NCBI GenBank assembly: GCA_049966015.1
Contig: JBMFVL010000001.1
Coordinates: forward strand, 6,000 to 69,999
DNA length: 64,000 nt
From: Thermoplasmata archaeon
GTDB taxonomy: Archaea; Thermoplasmatota; Thermoplasmata; Lutacidiplasmatales; JAMCUS01
Direction of reading: 5' to 3'
Below, piece after piece: positions 6,502-52,755 of this stretch; positions within the stretch are counted from its first letter, which is position 1; every line of letters begins with the position of its first letter. The notes below the pieces were generated by a model. The model saw only the letters and a list, made by a program, of their open reading frames with translations, had not been told where the DNA came from and did no database searches. A program made the position numbers and the translations under genes.

Positions 6502-7272
6502 ATGCTTTCACTTTGTTTTACTACGTACAATGTATCTCATATTGTAGGAGAATCCATGGAAAGTATCATTTCACCATTGATTAAATCTAGATATGAATTT
6601 GAGCTTTCTATAGTAGATAATTTGAGTACAGATAATACAGTACAGATCATTAAAAAAATACAGGAAAAATACAAAATAAAGGTTAACATTTATTCAAAAA
6701 AATGTATAAGAGGGGTTGGAAGGCAGGAAGCAGTTAATAGGGCTAATGGGGATTATGTAATCATAGGCATGGACCTAGACCAGATCTATTCAGATGATTG
6801 GATTGTTTACATTGATGAATTTTTCAAGGATCCTTTTTCCCCTTTATTTGCCATTCCAGATATGGCATGGGCCTCATATTTTGCAATAATGCCTAAAGAT
6901 TTGGCATTGAAAAATCCCATGCTTCCTGTCAATATAGCAGAAGATTTAGAATATAAAGAAAGGATTTATAAAAAAGCTAAATGCAGGGAAATGCATGGAA
7001 ATTTTGTTTTGAAGCATATACATGGAAAAATGCATAAACATTTACTCAATAGGTTGAGAAACCTTTTCTATGACTTGAGGGACCATATAGTTTTGGGATA
7101 TGGCCCGTTGACAATTATAGCAGATAGGCTTTTTATTGAAAAAAGGAACCCGTTATATATAGCATTGTACGTCTTTTTTATGCCATATGCAATGTTAAGT
7201 GCTTTAACTTTTTATAGATTGGATTATGAAAGGATATTTACTGGGGGATGGTATAGAAAAAAAAATAAATAG
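6502..7272 (+). CDS. Family 2 glycosyltransferase
   Basis: GT2 N-terminal pattern (TTYNVS ... ELSIVDNLSTDNT ... GDYVIIGMDLD). Confidence 0.55.
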   Translation: MLSLCFTTYNVSHIVGESMESIISPLIKSRYEFELSIVDNLSTDNTVQIIKKIQEKYKIKVNIYSKKCIRGVGRQEAVNRANGDYVIIGMDLDQIYSDDWIVYIDEFFKDPFSPLFAIPDMAWASYFAIMPKDLALKNPMLPVNIAEDLEYKERIYKKAKCREMHGNFVLKHIHGKMHKHLLNRLRNLFYDLRDHIVLGYGPLTIIADRLFIEKRNPLYIALYVFFMPYAMLSALTFYRLDYERIFTGGWYRKKNK

Positions 7273-7278
7273 AAAAAT

Positions 7279-8205
7279 TCATGCTTTTTGGGCTGCCATA
7301 TTGGCTGCCTTATTGATTTCCAGTAAGATTTTTGTTCTTTGCGTTTCTTCTTCGTGTATTTTTACCATTGCCTTTATTGATAAAACATAGCTAGCAGAGG
7401 TTATATCAGTTAAATTAACGGAAGGTTTTAAAATACCCTCCATTTCTGAAATCTTTTCTATGATCTTTTCCATTACATTTTCAATATTCATTTTTTTATC
7501 TACTTCATACCGTATTTTTATATAGCTGTGTTTTTCCTGGCTGTGATTAATAATTAAAGATTGTATGAATATGCTTGTTGGAATGAAAATTTGTTTGTTT
7601 TCTTCGTTTCTTAATACTACGTATATGTAGGATATATCCTCTATTGTCCCTGTATAACCAGGAGTAACGAAGTCTTGTGAATAAAATTTAGGGGAATAAG
7701 TAGGAGCAATTAAAGAATATTGCCATGTAACAAAGGTAATTTTATCACCAATTTTTAGATTTTTTACAAATAATATAATAAACCCTGCAAAAAGGTTAGA
7801 TAATACCGTTTGTGCTGCTAGCCCTATTACAATACCGGCAAATGCACCGCCTAGAACCAAACCAGATAAATCGATTTTTAACACGTAGAATATGATTATA
7901 AAAAGCAAGAAATATGCAATAACTTGAAAAACAAATTTAATTGACACAACCTCATGTTTCTTTAAAGAGCTCGATATCGTTTCCATTATTATTCCGATAA
8001 TATAGTTTATTACAAAATAACCTACCACAAAAATGATTATGGCAACTATGTATGTATTGATCTGGGAATATAATTTGCTAGTAACAGAAGATTTTTGTAA
8101 AATAAATACTGTCCCGAAAATTATGATAATACCAGCTATAAGAGCTAATAATCCGTACAATAACGTTGTTACGGTTCTTCTTGCTTTAACAATATTATTA
8201 CTCAT
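7279..8205 (-). CDS. Small-conductance mechanosensitive channel (MscS family)
   Basis: Three N-terminal TM helices followed by an MscS beta domain (IGDKITF ... GTIEDISYIYVVLRN). Confidence 0.7.
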   Translation of the reverse strand: MSNNIVKARRTVTTLLYGLLALIAGIIIIFGTVFILQKSSVTSKLYSQINTYIVAIIIFVVGYFVINYIIGIIMETISSSLKKHEVVSIKFVFQVIAYFLLFIIIFYVLKIDLSGLVLGGAFAGIVIGLAAQTVLSNLFAGFIILFVKNLKIGDKITFVTWQYSLIAPTYSPKFYSQDFVTPGYTGTIEDISYIYVVLRNEENKQIFIPTSIFIQSLIINHSQEKHSYIKIRYEVDKKMNIENVMEKIIEKISEMEGILKPSVNLTDITSASYVLSIKAMVKIHEEETQRTKILLEINKAANMAAQKA

Positions 8206-8226
8206 TTTTAATAAAAATTAAAAGGT

Positions 8227-9546
8227 TTATAGAATTCTTGAAATTTCTTTTTTCAATAATTCACCAGATTTGTCGTCCATTGCATACCTTACTCTCAATA
8301 TTGGTTTATTTACATGCACAATCTGGGATAGATTTATAGGCGTACCGGATATTACAACATCTGCATTTATCTTGTTTATGGTATCTTCTAGCTCTTGTAT
8401 TTGCTTTTTACTGTATCCCATAGCCGGCAATATTCCGCTTCCTATCAAGTGTGTATATTTTTTATAAACCTCTGCAATGCTTCCTACTGCGTATGGAACT
8501 GGATCAACAATACTCTTTACACCAAACTGTTTGGCAGCCAATGAAGCCGCGCCAAGTTTCATGCCACCATGGGTAACAGTGGGACCATCTTCCACTATTA
8601 TTGCATTTTTTCCTTTTGCCCCTTCTGAATTTTCCATGGTTATTAAAGACTGCGCTTCAATTACCTTTGCTTTAGGGTTAACTTCTTTCAGGTTGTTCTT
8701 AATAATATCTACGTCACTTTTGTTTGCTGTATTTACCTTATTTATTACTACAATATCTGCCATCCTGAAATTTGTTTCACCTGGATGATATTTTAGTTCG
8801 TGTCCGGCTCTGAACGGGTCTGCCACTACTATGTGCAAGTTTGGTTTGAAAAAGGGAATGTCATTGTTACCACCATCCCATAATATCACATCTGCTTCTT
8901 TTTCCGCTGCTCTTAGGATTTTTTCATAATCTACACCAGCATAAACAACTGTTTTATTTTCAAGATGGTGCTCATATTCTTCCCTTTCCTCTATTGTGCA
9001 CTTGAATTTATCCAAATCTTCAAACGTACTGAATCTTTCAACTGCTTGCTCTACCAGGTTTCCATATGGCATTGGATGCCTTACGACTACAACTTTTTTG
9101 TTCATTGCCCTTAACAGCTGTGCAATCATCCTTGTTGTCTGGCTTTTCCCACTCCCTGTCCTTACTGCACACACTGCTATGACAGGAACTTTAGAAGGCA
9201 GCATAACCTGGCTTGGTGAAAGCATCTTAAAAGACGCACCGTTTGCCAGGGCAATAGATGCACGGTTCATTACGTATTCGTGTGGAACATCGCTATATGA
9301 AAATACAACCTCATCTACCTTATATTTTTTTATCAGGTCAGGCAATTCGTTTTCTGGGTATATTTTAATGCCATTTGGATACATTGGACCGGCCAATTCT
9401 GGTGGATATACCCTGCCTTCTATGTTTGGTATCTGGGTTGCTGTAAATGCAACTACCTCATATTCGTTGTTATTTCTAAAAAAGGTATTAAAATCATGAA
9501 AATCTCTTCCTGCTGCACCCATTATTATTACTTTTTTCTTCACCAT
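8227..9546 (-). CDS. COG2403-family P-loop protein (cyclic 2,3-diphosphoglycerate synthetase-like)
   Basis: N-terminal Rossmann-like segment (KVIIMGAAGRD) and an internal P-loop (VRTGSGKSQTT). The roughly 440-aa size matches cDPGS-like proteins. The upstream Met at 9591 is an alternative start. Confidence 0.45.
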   Translation of the reverse strand: MVKKKVIIMGAAGRDFHDFNTFFRNNNEYEVVAFTATQIPNIEGRVYPPELAGPMYPNGIKIYPENELPDLIKKYKVDEVVFSYSDVPHEYVMNRASIALANGASFKMLSPSQVMLPSKVPVIAVCAVRTGSGKSQTTRMIAQLLRAMNKKVVVVRHPMPYGNLVEQAVERFSTFEDLDKFKCTIEEREEYEHHLENKTVVYAGVDYEKILRAAEKEADVILWDGGNNDIPFFKPNLHIVVADPFRAGHELKYHPGETNFRMADIVVINKVNTANKSDVDIIKNNLKEVNPKAKVIEAQSLITMENSEGAKGKNAIIVEDGPTVTHGGMKLGAASLAAKQFGVKSIVDPVPYAVGSIAEVYKKYTHLIGSGILPAMGYSKKQIQELEDTINKINADVVISGTPINLSQIVHVNKPILRVRYAMDDKSGELLKKEISRIL

Positions 9547-22650: not shown

Positions 22651-22797
22651 TGGGAGCACTGGGAATTGAACCCAGGTCGGCGGGTAACTTCTTAGGGGAT
22701 CGATGCTCCAATTAATCATCATTTTTATTCAGATTACCCAAGTTTCTTCTTTTCCCCATAACTGGAGCCCGCTAGGATACCTCTACCCCATGCTCCC
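22651..22797 (-). tRNA. tRNA-Trp (anticodon CCA) with a 76-nt intron in the anticodon loop
   Basis: Minus-strand cloverleaf: acceptor GGGAGCA/TGCTCCC, anticodon stem GCGGG/CCCGC with loop CUCCAG[intron]A, T-arm CTGGG-TTCAATT-CCCAG. The intron (37/38 position) contains AUGAUGA and CUGA motifs. Confidence 0.75.
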
Positions 22798-29121: not shown

Positions 29122-29142
29122 CTTTTAAAATATGTTATGTTT

Positions 29143-29262
29143 AGGTTGGGGGAGCCTTCAAACAAGGCTGAGAGGATCGTGTGAATCGACCCCTATACAC
29201 CTGATCCAGGTAATGCTGGCGTAGGGAAACCCTTGTGTATGGTATACCCCTCCTGGGGATAA
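29143..29262 (+). promoter_or_regulatory. TPP (THI-box) riboswitch
   Basis: Conserved TPP aptamer elements in order: GGGGAGCC ... CTGAGAGG ... ACCCC ... ACCTGATCCAGGTAATGCTGGCGTAGGGAAACCC. The 3' segment CCCCTCCTGGGG lies just upstream of the ATG and could occlude the RBS. Confidence 0.8.
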
Positions 29263-29268
29263 TAAAAA

Positions 29269-30393
29269 ATGGATAAGATTGGTAAAAATTGGAAGTTTAA
29301 GATTTTAGTTGTTGTGGCTATTGTGGTATTAGCGACGGTATTTTATGAAGGATACGTGCTTTATGTACAAAATCAAAAGAGTTCTGAACCTACACTTGTG
29401 ATATACACATATGGATCGCTGTTCAAATACGGTGCCAATCCAAATGAAACAATGAATATCGTTTTCGGTACATTTGAAAAGAAATACCATGTAAATATAG
29501 AGATAGAATACCTGAATAACATTCTCCAGACTTTAGAATCCCAAAAATCGAATCCTCAGGCAGACCTTGTAATTGGTTTAAGTAATGTAGAGGCACCAAC
29601 AGCAATTGAGAATGGGTTATTGGATCCGTATAACTATACTAACGATATTCCTTCCTTTTTGATCAATGGCCTTAGCAGCACCCACTACCTTACACCATAT
29701 GAATATTCATATTTAGCAATTGACTATACCATGTCCTTTTATAACCAGACCAATGGAAATGTTAGCCATTCTAATTTTTTGAATTTCTTAAACAGTACAT
29801 GGGCAAAAAATTTAATTTTAGAATCTCCGTTGACAGATACAACAGGCACAAATTTTTTGATATGGCAGATCGCTTTCTATGAATATGTACTTCACGACAA
29901 TAATTGGATTAGCTGGTGGAAAAGCATAAAGAATTATGCACTGATTGAAAGTGACTGGAGTACTGCCTTTAACCTTTTTACCACAAGTAATAATCCCCAA
30001 CAGCTCGTAGCCAGTTATTCTACTGACCCAGCTTATGAAATATACAACAACGGTGCGATGAACGGTACATTTAGCTATAACAGCACATTGTCTTATTATA
30101 ACAATACATATTACGGTTGGGATACTATATTCGGTATAGGAATAGTGCATGGTTCCACCCATTTGCTTTTGGACCAGGAATTTATCAACTGGTTTTTAAG
30201 CGGAACTGTACAATCTCAAATTCCTTTAAATGAATGGGCATACCCTGCAAATAATACAGTTATGTTACCTCCTGCATATAAATATGCCGTGAATCCCTCT
30301 AATGTTGTTCCTTTAAACAATTACCTTACACAACAACAAATATATTCAAACATGACATCGTGGTTAGAACAATGGCAATTAGCAATGAGTTGA
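29269..30393 (+). CDS. ABC transporter substrate-binding protein (thiamine/TbpA-like), membrane-anchored
   Basis: N-terminal TM anchor plus periplasmic-binding fold. First gene after the TPP riboswitch, followed by a permease and an ATPase. Confidence 0.6.
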   Translation: MDKIGKNWKFKILVVVAIVVLATVFYEGYVLYVQNQKSSEPTLVIYTYGSLFKYGANPNETMNIVFGTFEKKYHVNIEIEYLNNILQTLESQKSNPQADLVIGLSNVEAPTAIENGLLDPYNYTNDIPSFLINGLSSTHYLTPYEYSYLAIDYTMSFYNQTNGNVSHSNFLNFLNSTWAKNLILESPLTDTTGTNFLIWQIAFYEYVLHDNNWISWWKSIKNYALIESDWSTAFNLFTTSNNPQQLVASYSTDPAYEIYNNGAMNGTFSYNSTLSYYNNTYYGWDTIFGIGIVHGSTHLLLDQEFINWFLSGTVQSQIPLNEWAYPANNTVMLPPAYKYAVNPSNVVPLNNYLTQQQIYSNMTSWLEQWQLAMS

Positions 30394-39348: not shown

Positions 39349-39437
39349 GTAGTATTGATTGATTATACTATATATAAGGATTCATTGCAATTCGATGCGT
39401 TAAATCTATAAATTTGAATTGCATGTTGTTTCTGTAT

Positions 39438-39539
39438 AGCCCCGTAGTGTAGTGGTCAATCATGCGGGACTCTGGAAGTTTATCTGGAGATATCCTGCGA
39501 CACAGGTTCGAATTGAAAAAGAAAATCCTGTCGGGGCTA
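39438..39539 (+). tRNA. tRNA-Gln (probable anticodon CUG) with apparent short insertions/introns
   Basis: Acceptor AGCCCCG/CGGGGCU (A1-U72 is typical of archaeal tRNA-Gln). T-stem ACAGG/CCTGT is perfect but encloses a 20-nt loop TTCGAATTGAAAAAGAAAAT. The anticodon region carries a duplicated CTCTGGA/ATCTGGAGA segment, consistent with a roughly 15-nt intron. Total length 102 nt. Confidence 0.6.
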
Positions 39540-43749: not shown

Positions 43750-44589
43750 ATGAAAAAAATTTTAGTTGTAGGATCAGGCATTATGGGGGCAGGCATTTCA
43801 GAGGTTTGTGCAATAAATGGATATGAAATATATATGTATGATATCCAACAAGCTTTTGTGGATAAAGGAATGGAAAATATAAAGCAAAGCTTAGAAAAAC
43901 TGCACAAAAAAGGGGTTGTTAATGAACAACCAGATGCGATTTTGAGCAGGATAACTCCTACAATTAATTTTAGCAATAACATTAACCCAGATATTATTAT
44001 TGAAGCCGCACCAGAAAACATTTCTATAAAAAAGAAAATTTTTTCAGAAGTATCAAAAACATATTCCAACGTAGAAATACTGGCTTCAACTACTTCTTCT
44101 TTATCTATAACTGAATTGGGATCTGTTACCCCTTTTCCAGACAGGGTAATAGGGCTTCATTTTTTCAATCCTGCTCCGATTATGAAGTTGGTAGAAATCA
44201 TTCCTGGATATATGACATCTAAAAACATTATAGAATCTTCAGAAAAATTCATTAAAACATTAAAGAAGGAGATAAGTTACTCTGCTGATCTTCCTGGTTT
44301 CGTTACATCTCGCATGATTGGGGTTATTGTCAATGAAGCGGCATGGATGTTATATGAATCGGTTTCATCCAAAGAGGAAATAGATAAAGGTATTGTACTT
44401 GGGCTCAACCATCCAATGGGTCCTTTGGCATTGGCAGATATGATAGGAATTGATACAGTATTGAAAATAATAGAGCGTTTATACACTGGCTTTGGAGACC
44501 CTAAATACAGGCCATGCCCTATTCTGTACAATATGGTCTATTCTAATAAGTTGGGCAAAAAAACAGGGGAAGGATTTTATAAATATTGA
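43750..44589 (+). CDS. hbd: 3-hydroxyacyl-CoA (3-hydroxybutyryl-CoA) dehydrogenase
   Basis: N-terminal NAD-binding motif ILVVGSGIMGAGI and 3HCDH C-terminal domain; 279 aa. Confidence 0.8.
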   Translation: MKKILVVGSGIMGAGISEVCAINGYEIYMYDIQQAFVDKGMENIKQSLEKLHKKGVVNEQPDAILSRITPTINFSNNINPDIIIEAAPENISIKKKIFSEVSKTYSNVEILASTTSSLSITELGSVTPFPDRVIGLHFFNPAPIMKLVEIIPGYMTSKNIIESSEKFIKTLKKEISYSADLPGFVTSRMIGVIVNEAAWMLYESVSSKEEIDKGIVLGLNHPMGPLALADMIGIDTVLKIIERLYTGFGDPKYRPCPILYNMVYSNKLGKKTGEGFYKY

Positions 44590-45098
44590 TTTTCTACTAC
44601 CATTTTACCTTTTTCTTTGGGTATGATTTTTAGTTTTCCATTATTATTTTCTTTAATAGCTTTTTCTGGGAATACATCGTGGAGAAATATTGCCAGGGCA
44701 GATATCTCTGAATGTGGTTGGTTGTATATAGCAACATTGTAGTTAGCTTTGAGGTATACTTCAATTGGCACTTTGGTTGCACCTATAACCACTAAAAGGT
44801 TATCCTCTTCTTTTTTAATTTGGTCCTTAACATCCCAGAGAGGTATACCGTACATGGTAAGATGTACAATAACACCTTTCCATGAATTTAATAATGTATG
44901 CCACTTATCCATGCCTTCCACTTGAAATGAACCGCCAAACCGTTCGTTTACACCTTTTATTGTTTTTTCAATACTTTTATCAGGTGGTGAGATGTATATC
45001 CCTCTGGCACCGAGAGCTCTTGCAACCAGTGCAGCATGTGTGGTGACACGCTTATCCCTGTCCATTCTATGACCTATCCTAAGAACATAAATATCCAA
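44577..45098 (-). CDS. tRNA (cytidine56-2'-O)-methyltransferase aTrm56
   Basis: About 170-aa SPOUT protein matching the aTrm56 family (RIGHRMDRDKRVTTHAALVARALGA ... VVIGATKVP). Confidence 0.7.
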   Translation of the reverse strand: MDIYVLRIGHRMDRDKRVTTHAALVARALGARGIYISPPDKSIEKTIKGVNERFGGSFQVEGMDKWHTLLNSWKGVIVHLTMYGIPLWDVKDQIKKEEDNLLVVIGATKVPIEVYLKANYNVAIYNQPHSEISALAIFLHDVFPEKAIKENNNGKLKIIPKEKGKMVVENQYL

Positions 45099-45826: not shown

Positions 45827-45921
45827 GCGGGGGTTCTCGAGCTTGGCCAAAGGGGCAAGGCTTAGGACCTTGTTGCGTAGGCATTCGCCGGTTCAAAAAA
45901 TTGAAAATCCGGCCCCCCGCA
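45827..45921 (+). tRNA. tRNA-Leu (anticodon UAG) with an apparent roughly 10-nt insertion in the T-loop
   Basis: Type II tRNA: acceptor GCGGGGG/CCCCCGC, D-loop AGCTTGGCCAAAG, anticodon stem CAAGG/CCTTG with loop CTTAGGA, long variable arm. T-stem GCCGG/CCGGC encloses a 17-nt loop TTCAAAAAATTGAAAAT. Confidence 0.7.
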
Positions 45922-52505: not shown

Positions 52506-52552
52506 ACCGATAGCAAATTAAAAATACCATTTTATCGATGTTGGTAGTATAT

Positions 52553-52637
52553 GCAGGGGTAGTCAAGCTTGGTCAAAGGCGCCAGACTAAGGATCTGGTC
52601 TTATAGAAGTCCGTGAGTTCAAATCTCACCCCCTGCA
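52553..52637 (+). tRNA. tRNA-Leu (type II); the anticodon loop reads CUAAGGA, so the apparent anticodon is AAG
   Basis: Acceptor GCAGGGG/CCCCTGC, D-loop AGCTTGGTCAAAG, anticodon stem CCAGA/TCTGG, long variable arm, T-arm GTGAG-TTCAAAT-CTCAC. Confidence 0.7.
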
Positions 52638-52755
52638 TCAATATTTTAAGAAAGATTTTTGAAATACTTTGTGTAATTAAAAACCAGGAGATTTTAATAA
52701 GTTTAAATCAGTATAATCAAAAATATTTTTGGTAAAATAAAAATTTAAAAAATGT

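Follow-up and report, generated by a model that had tools for sequence, protein, structure and literature searches.

The window examined here, a 64,000-nucleotide stretch of archaeal DNA, contains a tRNA-Gln gene with far more bases in its T-loop than a canonical tRNA, and the question raised by this locus is whether the surplus is an intron that is spliced out, a part of the mature molecule, or a sign of a decaying gene. The original prediction, which was made from the letters alone, had proposed two introns. Our preferred reading, held at a probability of roughly 0.78, is that the locus encodes a twice-spliced tRNA-Gln(CUG), in which the T-loop insert is a relaxed bulge-helix-bulge (BHB) intron at position 59/60 and belongs to a clade-specific family.

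Anatomy and conservation of the tRNA-Gln gene

Both the identity of the gene and its predicted extent of 102 nt, for a mature tRNA of about 73 nt, were confirmed. The Rfam tRNA model RF00005 matched exactly this span with 41.3 bits (gathering score 29, local E = 8.6e-08, model positions 1-71), and the length divides into 73 nt of exon, 16 nt of intron 1 and 13 nt of intron 2 (Table 1). The Rfam match was obtained with permissive filters only, the gene being missed at the gathering threshold with default filters, and its alignment has two large insertions, with 19 nt in place of 3 model positions in the anticodon loop and 14 nt in place of 1 in the T-loop. Running ARAGORN with intron options, as had been recommended, gave a divided result: no call was made on the intact locus (default, -i, -i0,40, -ps, -ps80), but deletion of 13 nt from the T-loop led to a call of tRNA-Gln(ctg) with a 16-nt intron in the anticodon loop. 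The cloverleaf is intact in both the sequence and the Rfam alignment, with an A1-U72 pair followed by A73, and the anticodon CUG lies in a 7-nt loop once the intron is removed (ARAGORN). An A1-U72 first pair is a feature of archaeal tRNA-Gln that is read by GatDE. The terminal CCA is not encoded.

Table 1. Coordinates of the two insert-bearing tRNA genes and their parts, numbered from the first letter of the window.
Feature	Position	Strand	Description and basis
TATA-box-like TATAAAT	39407..39413	+	Centred ~28 nt before the tRNA 5' end; candidate promoter of archaeal type; read from sequence
tRNA-Gln(CUG) gene	39438-39539	+	102 nt; Rfam, and ARAGORN after insert removal; exon/intron 1/exon/intron 2/exon: AGCCCCGTAGTGTAGTGGTCAATCATGCGGGACTCTGG/AAGTTTATCTGGAGAT/ATCCTGCGACACAGGTTCGAA/TTGAAAAAGAAAA/TCCTGTCGGGGCTA
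Exon 1, positions 1-37	39438..39475	+	Acceptor 5' strand, D-arm, anticodon stem 5' strand, loop to G37; Rfam tRNA alignment, ARAGORN after insert removal, identical in sister lineage
Intron 1, 16 nt	39476..39491	+	AAGTTTATCTGGAGAT; canonical 37/38; hBHBh'-capable; ARAGORN i(39,16)
Exon 2, positions 38-59	39492..39512	+	Anticodon stem 3' strand, 4-nt variable loop, T-stem 5' strand, T-loop U54-A59
Intron 2, 13 nt	39513..39525	+	TTGAAAAAGAAAA; T-loop 59/60; relaxed hBH/BHL motif
Exon 3, positions 60-73	39526..39539	+	U60, T-stem 3' strand, acceptor 3' strand, discriminator A73
tRNA-Leu(UAG), second hidden gene	45827..45921	+	95 nt; 17-nt T-loop TTCAAA/AAATTGAAAA/T; custom scan, and ARAGORN after removal
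10-nt T-loop intron of tRNA-Leu(UAG), 59/60	45898..45907	+	AAATTGAAAA; BHL

The insertion in the anticodon arm is real but is one nucleotide longer than the approximately 15 nt first suggested. Intron 1 can be drawn by hand as a 3-4-3 bulge-helix-bulge with cuts at 37/38, in which C32-U35 (CUCU) pair with intronic GGAG in the central helix, the 5' bulge GGA consists of G36-G37 and intron A1, the 3' bulge AUA consists of intron A15-U16 and A38, and the inner helix h' has 2 bp (AG/CU). In the minimum free energy (MFE) fold of the region the helix runs on through G36, G37 and intron A1, and the 5' bulge is lost. The direct repeat that had been noticed here is genuine; UCUGGA, which is complementary to itself if G-U pairs are counted, occurs twice because of the pairing between the anticodon loop and the 3' part of intron 1. 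Positions 1 and 13 of the intron vary in the sister variants, one of which has a U.U mismatch in the central helix.

For the T-loop, a perfect 5-bp T-stem (ACAGG/CCTGT) enclosing 20 nt had been described, with about 13 nt that could be removed, and deletion of 13 nt at any of four equivalent offsets indeed restores TTCGAAT. On sequence alone the boundaries of intron 2 may therefore lie anywhere from 57/58 to 60/61; the geometry picks 59/60, the T-arm position that is structurally equivalent to 37/38. The loop parses as UUCG/AAU/UGAAAA/AGAA/AAU. With the T-stem as outer helix, U54 and U55 each pair with an intronic A and C56 pairs with G, followed by a G57.A mismatch, which gives a short, A-U rich central helix (3 bp plus the mismatch). 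The last two A of the intron and U60 form an AAU bulge directly 5' of the T-stem 3' strand, and the 5' cut position, after A59, is two nucleotides past helix position 4. The search for a relaxed BHB motif that had been advised was thus positive at this site (an hBH/BHL motif of helix and AAU bulge), and its modelled geometry would put the cuts at 59/60, where the small intron had been expected, giving a predicted exon junction of GGTTCGAA/TCCTGT. A strict hBHBh' test found no inner helix h', there being at most one U-A pair closing a GAAA loop. An earlier scan for BHB motifs in general, which required 3 or more of 4 helix pairs and 2 or more outer pairs, had returned dozens of spurious sites and was replaced by this explicit geometry.

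The MFE fold of the T-arm reproduces both the helix between U54U55C56 and intronic GAA and the AAU bulge, with a pairing probability for the helix of ~0.45 in the full precursor. Taken by itself, this geometry is only weakly non-random: it arises in 4% of random 13-mers of genome composition and in 10% of sequences obtained by shuffling the insert. As U54, U55 and C56 are invariant, the helix offers no covariation signal.

A sister lineage, with a MetAP 91% identical to that of the window, has the tRNA-Gln gene in the same syntenic position in six independent assemblies, which come from JGI, ENA and Logan samples. The sister gene matches the window at each of the 73 exon positions, as against 80-91% identity in the neighbouring coding and intergenic DNA, and the chance of this at a background of 0.9 is 0.9^73, or ~5e-4. 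Such identity is more than chance, and the comparison indicates that the gene is under selection with the insert in place. The upstream stretch with the TATA-like element is also conserved, and the 3' flank has diverged. Intron 2 is likewise identical (13/13) in the six sister assemblies; this was set aside as evidence, since its probability is ~0.25 at 90% background identity.

When spliced in silico, the tRNA-Gln is identical at 69 of 73 positions to an intron-less tRNA-Gln(CUG) from another Thermoplasmatota MAG, and all four differences belong to two compensatory T-stem pairs. A pattern search with the D-arm returned ~120 archaeal tRNA-Gln genes in which this arm is identical; all have 7-nt T-loops, reading TTCGAAT throughout, and none carries a T-loop insert, while a 37/38 intron is present in only a handful. 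Apparent T-loops of 22 or 30 nt in this panel, and cases that could not be parsed, were parser artefacts arising from a mismatched T-stem. The exact exons had no match in species-representative genomes, indicating that the lineage is absent among the representatives, and a metagenome scan for T-arm inserts of at least 3 nt in this tRNA-Gln returned just one contig, which was already known. One further sequence (L127) shares the 5' exon, which is followed by a long insertion that runs off the contig end.

T-loop inserts in other tRNA genes of the clade

A custom scan looked for TTCRA and additional bases within a 5-bp T-stem, with an acceptor 3' strand downstream of the stem and the complement of that strand upstream. 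It covered 1.0 Mb of DNA, and candidates were verified by ARAGORN after in-silico removal of the extra bases. The positive control was recovered, together with three more genes in the clade and one in an unrelated lineage.

ARAGORN did not report the tRNA-Leu(UAG) gene in the window, and a search of a 191-nt slice with Rfam at a cutoff as loose as E<=10 failed to recover it. Its insert pairs in a 4-bp helix, UUCA/UGAA, all Watson-Crick, with an AAU bulge, and the same structure is present in the MFE fold (-9.7 kcal/mol); an inner helix of the strict hBHBh' kind is impossible in it. The predicted exon junction is GGTTCAAA/TCCGGC. The sister lineage (L135) has an identical copy. A more distant orthologue (L136), located upstream of a ValRS gene whose product is 58% identical, has a 13-nt insert, ATAATATTGAAAA, in which UGAAAA is kept and the loop part differs from that of the 10-nt insert in both length and sequence, and its acceptor stem shows a compensatory change from G6:C67 to A6:U67. 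This divergence of the Leu inserts looks like intron evolution. The remaining gene is a tRNA-Ser(UGA) from a lineage with 54% MetAP identity (L009), and carries a 15-nt insert, TTACAATAAGGAAAA, with a UUCA/GGAA helix of 3 bp plus A.G and again an AAU bulge. Removal of the insert from the Leu and Ser genes gave a canonical T-loop and an ARAGORN call.

All four inserts (Gln, the two Leu and Ser) are at the same position and end in GAAAA directly before U60, an ending that has a probability of ~1.5e-5 for three independent tRNAs even with an A-rich insert composition. The spacing of the predicted second cut is also constant, the 5' site after N59 being 2 nt beyond helix position 4 in Gln, Leu and Ser alike. 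T-loop inserts are present in 4/7 tRNA loci of the clade, compared with 1/132 in 812 kb of other archaea sampled (Fisher P = 1e-5, or 2e-4 without the gene that triggered the search). The three clade genes with plain T-loops are those for Thr, Trp and Leu-AAG. Rfam with permissive filters recovered Gln and Trp, and missed Leu(UAG) and the Leu and Ser genes of the relatives. ARAGORN -i reported no tRNA on the contigs of the relatives, so a T-loop insert conceals every tRNA present there. In the next-closest lineages (L137-L141) the genes for Met, Lys and Asn tRNAs have T-loops of normal form, and no further inserts were found in these or in the 10 kb beyond the window start (L142).

The insert in tRNA-Gln is thus not a one-off; going by these sequences it is a member of a clade-wide set of T-loop mini-introns, and this strengthens the intron reading.

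Host lineage and comparison with known tRNA introns

The window sequence matches MAG GCA_049967995.1 (contig JBMFRP010000003.1) and has a G+C content of ~33%. The closest named relatives of its MetAP are Thermoplasmatota or Thermoplasmata MAGs, at no more than 54% identity; for ValRS, identity is 90% to the sister lineage, 58% to a single relative and ~50% to all others, which are annotated as Methanomassiliicoccales or Thermoplasmata. The best match of its digeranylgeranylglycerophospholipid reductase is a Thermoplasmatales-specific NCBIfam model, and among the other genes of the window are one for a class-II HMG-CoA reductase and large metabolic ones. Because of MetAP, ValRS, the reductase model and the class-II HMG-CoA reductase, the host is assigned as a deep-branching, uncultured Thermoplasmata archaeon from a hot spring, and on these markers it is neither DPANN nor TACK. 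An origin in DPANN/ARMAN, hinted at by tRNA-Leu(AAG) and by the ARMAN-2 precedent described below, was ruled out by the same markers together with the large metabolic genes.

This placement bears out the remark in the original prediction that such introns are not typical of euryarchaeal tRNAs. Records of 59/60 introns and of hBH/BHL motifs come mainly from Crenarchaeota and Nanoarchaeota, whereas euryarchaeal tRNA genes are described as having a single canonical BHB intron (PMC4090602), and Cluster II Euryarchaeota as encoding only the alpha'2 type of the splicing endonuclease EndA (PMC5829648). The EndA of T. acidophilum is an alpha'2 enzyme of 'narrow' specificity (PMC6379350), and alpha4 and alpha'2 enzymes are described as requiring a strict motif and are reported not to process relaxed ones (PMC6379350, PMC5829648, PMC3239211). 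A Thermoplasmata host, with the narrow alpha'2 EndA expected of it, would therefore count against excision of a relaxed intron. An HMM built from PDB-verified EndA sequences gave no match in six-frame translations of the window, of the contigs of the sister lineage and the relatives and of the additional 10 kb of the source record (L001-L012, L133-L137 and L142).

The closest precedent is the pre-tRNA-Cys(GCA) of ARMAN-2 (Candidatus Micrarchaeum acidiphilum; Fujishima et al. 2011), which has a 13-nt hBH intron at 59/60 that is cleaved in vitro by an epsilon2 EndA (PMC3239211). Compared by description, the insert in tRNA-Gln shares with it the 59/60 position, the length of 13 nt, the relaxed hBH/BHL motif, the T-stem as outer helix and an acidic habitat. 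ARMAN-2 differs in being a DPANN host with a dedicated epsilon2 EndA that carries a specificity loop, whereas here the host belongs to the Thermoplasmata and cleavage is predicted; moreover, the inserts described here form a GAAAA/U60 family that goes down to 10 nt, and the one in tRNA-Gln accompanies a canonical intron.

Thermoproteales, other Crenarchaeota, Thaumarchaeota and Nanoarchaeota resemble the window in having two introns per gene (37/38 plus a non-canonical one), 59/60 as a listed site, hBH/HBh' motifs and related introns across isoacceptors, as far as the sources describe them (Marck & Grosjean 2003 and Sugahara et al. 2008 as summarised in PMC4090602; tRNAscan-SE 2.0, PMC8450103). 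According to these summaries, the Thermoproteales and allied multi-intron lineages differ in their (alpha-beta)2 EndA with a crenarchaeal specificity loop and in their many intron positions, whereas the introns of the present clade are so far at 59/60 only, shorter and A-rich.

Two euryarchaeal cases are also informative. The pre-tRNA-Glu(UUC) of Methanopyrus kandleri (Kaneta et al. 2018, PMC5829648) combines a canonical and a relaxed intron, as tRNA-Gln does, and raises the same issue for an enzyme without a specificity loop. Its relaxed intron differs in being an HBh' motif in the D-loop rather than in the T-loop and in lacking a different element, and M. kandleri belongs to Cluster I and has an (alpha-beta)2 enzyme, whereas the Thermoplasmata are in Cluster II. 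The second is a tRNA-Arg(GCG) in a Methanosarcinales MAG (L074, 2262-2367), which has a 33-nt intron at 59/60 and is like the clade inserts in its position, in coming from a Cluster II euryarchaeon and in a central helix, UUCA/UGAA, that adjoins the T-stem. It differs in forming a strict hBHBh' of 3-4-3 layout whose inner helix is long, whereas the clade inserts are without an inner helix, and it is plausibly cleavable by a narrow-specificity enzyme, judging from the modelled motif.

A full-text literature search found no report of T-loop introns in Thermoplasmata. The insert in tRNA-Gln is thus an intron of a familiar kind, met in a lineage where it was not expected. What is unusual about the inserts of this clade is their length of 10-15 nt, their common GAAAA/U signature, the single recurrent position and, in tRNA-Gln, the canonical intron alongside. 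The minimum intron length given in a 2014 review was 11 nt (PMC4090602), and the 10-nt Leu example is shorter.

Proposed processing of the inserts and its significance

In the proposed pathway a functional, promoter-equipped tRNA-Gln gene would be transcribed into a precursor that needs two splicings. GGAG of intron 1 would pair with C32-U35 and give a standard bulge-helix-bulge. For intron 2 the T-stem would serve as the outer helix, and the 3' GAA would pair with C56-U55-U54; the 3' cut site would then fall inside the 3-nt bulge (two A and U60), and the 5' cut site after A59, at a symmetric distance in the remaining loop, making an hBH or bulge-helix-loop substrate. EndA would cut both introns and an RtcB-type ligase would presumably join the exons. 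Splicing would restore the 7-nt loop UUCGAAU, and only then could the T-arm fold, be modified (e.g. at C56 by the aTrm56 encoded nearby) and dock on the D-loop. The insert would belong to a family of 10-15-nt T-loop introns with GAAAA before U60, found in tRNA-Gln, tRNA-Leu(UAG) and tRNA-Ser(UGA) of a low-G+C clade.

A rival reading accepts that the inserts are removed, but by means other than an EndA of broadened specificity: a narrow alpha'2 enzyme might cut at the 3' bulge, with another nuclease or trimming completing the removal, or a dedicated activity might read GAAAA/U. Such processing is improbable in our estimation, and we know of no precedent in archaea for a two-step or dedicated pathway of this kind. 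It would account for the conservation of the GAAAA/U sequence of bulge and helix strand beyond what BHB recognition is known to need, and it fits both the alpha'2 EndA expected in Thermoplasmata (PMC6379350) and the A. fulgidus alpha'2 enzyme, which cleaves a relaxed motif mainly at the bulge (PMC5829648). However, the conservation of GAA is fully accounted for by its pairing with the invariant U54U55C56, the AA may stem from common descent or from local duplication of the intron, and the spacing is the exact ruler of EndA (4 helix positions, then a cut after the second nucleotide). It is somewhat less probable again that the inserts are retained and that the mature tRNAs of the clade work with expanded T-loops of 17-22 nt. 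Positions 59 and 60 of tRNA bulge out of the T-loop core; from tRNA structure, 59/60 would be the least disruptive place for an insertion in the loop, and selection clearly acts on the genes with the insert present. Against retention, the conserved part of the insert is complementary to U54-U55-C56, and pairing between them would sequester nucleotides on which the T-loop fold and the G18/G19 elbow contacts depend; moreover, orthologues differ in the length of the insert (10 vs 13 nt), and removal gives the exact canonical loop in every case. To our knowledge, no cytoplasmic tRNA has a T-loop of 17-22 nt.

Least probable of all, and very unlikely, is that the locus is a decaying pseudogene or the remnant of a mobile-element integration, with CAG codons being read in this A+T-rich genome by tRNA-Gln(UUG). 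The rejection of the locus by standard tRNA finders, the low-complexity, A-rich insert that resembles a local duplication (UUGAAAA + AGAAAA) and the rarity of CAG codons expected at 33% G+C would all agree with decay. The gene nevertheless matches the sister lineage at every exon position against a background divergence of ~10%, its cloverleaf, A1-U72 pair and A73 are intact, and the upstream TATA-like region is conserved; furthermore, the same architecture recurs in the Leu and Ser genes, with the compensatory change in the Leu acceptor stem having been made across a ValRS divergence to 58% identity.

If the inserts are a T-loop intron family with relaxed motifs, then the endonuclease of the clade would accept relaxed motifs, and the data suggest an ability in tRNA splicing that is unexpected in this part of the archaeal tree. 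We regard as evenly balanced the wider proposal that, in a thermoacidophilic low-G+C Thermoplasmata clade, a large share of the tRNAs (4/7 loci) carries 59/60 BHL introns with the GAAAA/U60 signature, and that either a broad-specificity EndA has evolved or been acquired or the alpha'2 enzyme handles relaxed motifs. An acquired enzyme may possibly have come from co-resident ARMAN/Micrarchaeota or from Crenarchaeota.

A practical consequence concerns annotation. None of the four insert-bearing genes was found by ARAGORN, and Rfam found tRNA-Gln alone, with permissive filters. Since standard tools miss such genes, estimates of tRNA complement, completeness and codon capacity would be too low for such MAGs unless intron-aware tools are used.

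The wider interest lies in the enzyme. Relaxed, non-canonically placed tRNA introns are taken as the marker of a broad EndA, as in Crenarchaeota, other TACK archaea, Nanoarchaeota and ARMAN-2. The Thermoplasmata, like the remaining Cluster II euryarchaea, are the textbook counter-example, in that their enzyme is narrow and their tRNA introns are single and canonical. A family of T-loop mini-introns in the Thermoplasmata would therefore provide a concrete test of the model of EndA/intron co-evolution, and the prediction concerns one gene: the type of EndA, and whether or not it has the lysine-bearing insertion loop. The Leu insert, with 10 nt, a 4-bp helix and one bulge, would be a minimal natural substrate for the way in which the enzyme measures its cut sites. 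If the reading is true, either a new broad EndA or a permissive alpha'2 enzyme would break the coupling that has been proposed between the type of EndA and the type of intron.

Possible alternative fold of the T-loop insert and the neighbouring aTrm56 gene

The first repeat copy in the tRNA-Gln(CUG) T-loop could also form an alternative hairpin (UUCG-AAU-UGAA), which contains a G.U pair and has a predicted energy of -3.3 kcal/mol, as compared with -5.1 kcal/mol for the bulge-helix-loop register. The insert (39513-39525) resembles a tandem duplication of the unit inserted in tRNA-Leu(UAG), UUGAAAA followed by AGAAAA. The two genes carrying T-loop introns flank the gene for aTrm56, the tRNA C56 2'-O-methyltransferase. 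In the modelled precursor tRNAs C56, the target of this enzyme, would be paired with an intronic G, and from this pairing we infer that splicing would have to precede its modification by aTrm56.

Features of the window and of related contigs
Feature	Position	Accession	Strand	Source
tRNA-Trp(CCA), 76-nt intron at 37/38	22651-22797		-	window
TPP riboswitch (Rfam RF00059, 72.2 bits)	29138-29244		+	window
aTrm56	44577-45098		-	window
tRNA-Leu(AAG)	52552-52639		+	window
tRNA-Arg(GCG), 33-nt intron at 59/60	L074 2262-2367	CAZENX010000008.1	+	Methanosarcinales MAG
tRNA-Gln 5' exon	L127 6138-6378	JBMFNP010000069.1	+	Thermoplasmata MAG KM4338-14
IS605/TnpB (Cas12f-like) genes or fragments	L007-L012 about 7000-8240; L135 9474-9719			relatives (MetAP 54% identical); sister lineage
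Mobile-element-like block	L142 10901-20900	JBMFRP010000003.1

Other tRNA genes and a riboswitch

The tRNA-Trp(CCA) gene was not reported by ARAGORN in default mode or with the Rfam default filters, and the initial signal at the locus was a weak tmRNA match. Its intron contains box C/D-like motifs (AUGAUGA ... CUGA), is matched weakly by C/D sRNA families and is, judging from its sequence, the classic euryarchaeal tRNA-Trp guide-RNA intron. The tRNA-Leu(AAG) gene has a normal T-loop (TTCAAAT). Its anticodon places an A at wobble position 34, which is unusual for an archaeon; archaea, to our knowledge, do not carry out A34-to-I editing. The same oddity has been described in ARMAN-4 and ARMAN-5 (PMC3239211). 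The TPP riboswitch lies upstream of an ORF at 29269-30393.

Mobile elements and gene order in relatives

Gene order downstream of MetAP is not constant across the contigs of relatives. IS605/TnpB genes or fragments adjoin MetAP in the 54% relatives, and in the sister lineage they lie between the ArsR-family gene and tRNA-Leu(UAG). The L142 block, within the 10 kb that precede the window start, encodes a TraG/DUF87-type ATPase, a 1427-aa ORF and a DDE transposase, and is mobile-element-like.

Related tRNA genes in other archaea

The tRNA-Gln 5' exon of MAG KM4338-14 is identical to that of the window. Directly after the anticodon it is followed by a G+C-rich stretch of over 200 nt that reaches the contig end; possible readings of this stretch are a very long intron, a split gene and an integrated element. 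The intron of the Methanosarcinales tRNA-Arg(GCG) has a strict hBHBh' motif, with a UUCA/UGAA helix, AUU and AGC bulges and a long inner helix. T-loop introns are therefore found in a further Cluster II euryarchaeon as well, where the motif is canonical.
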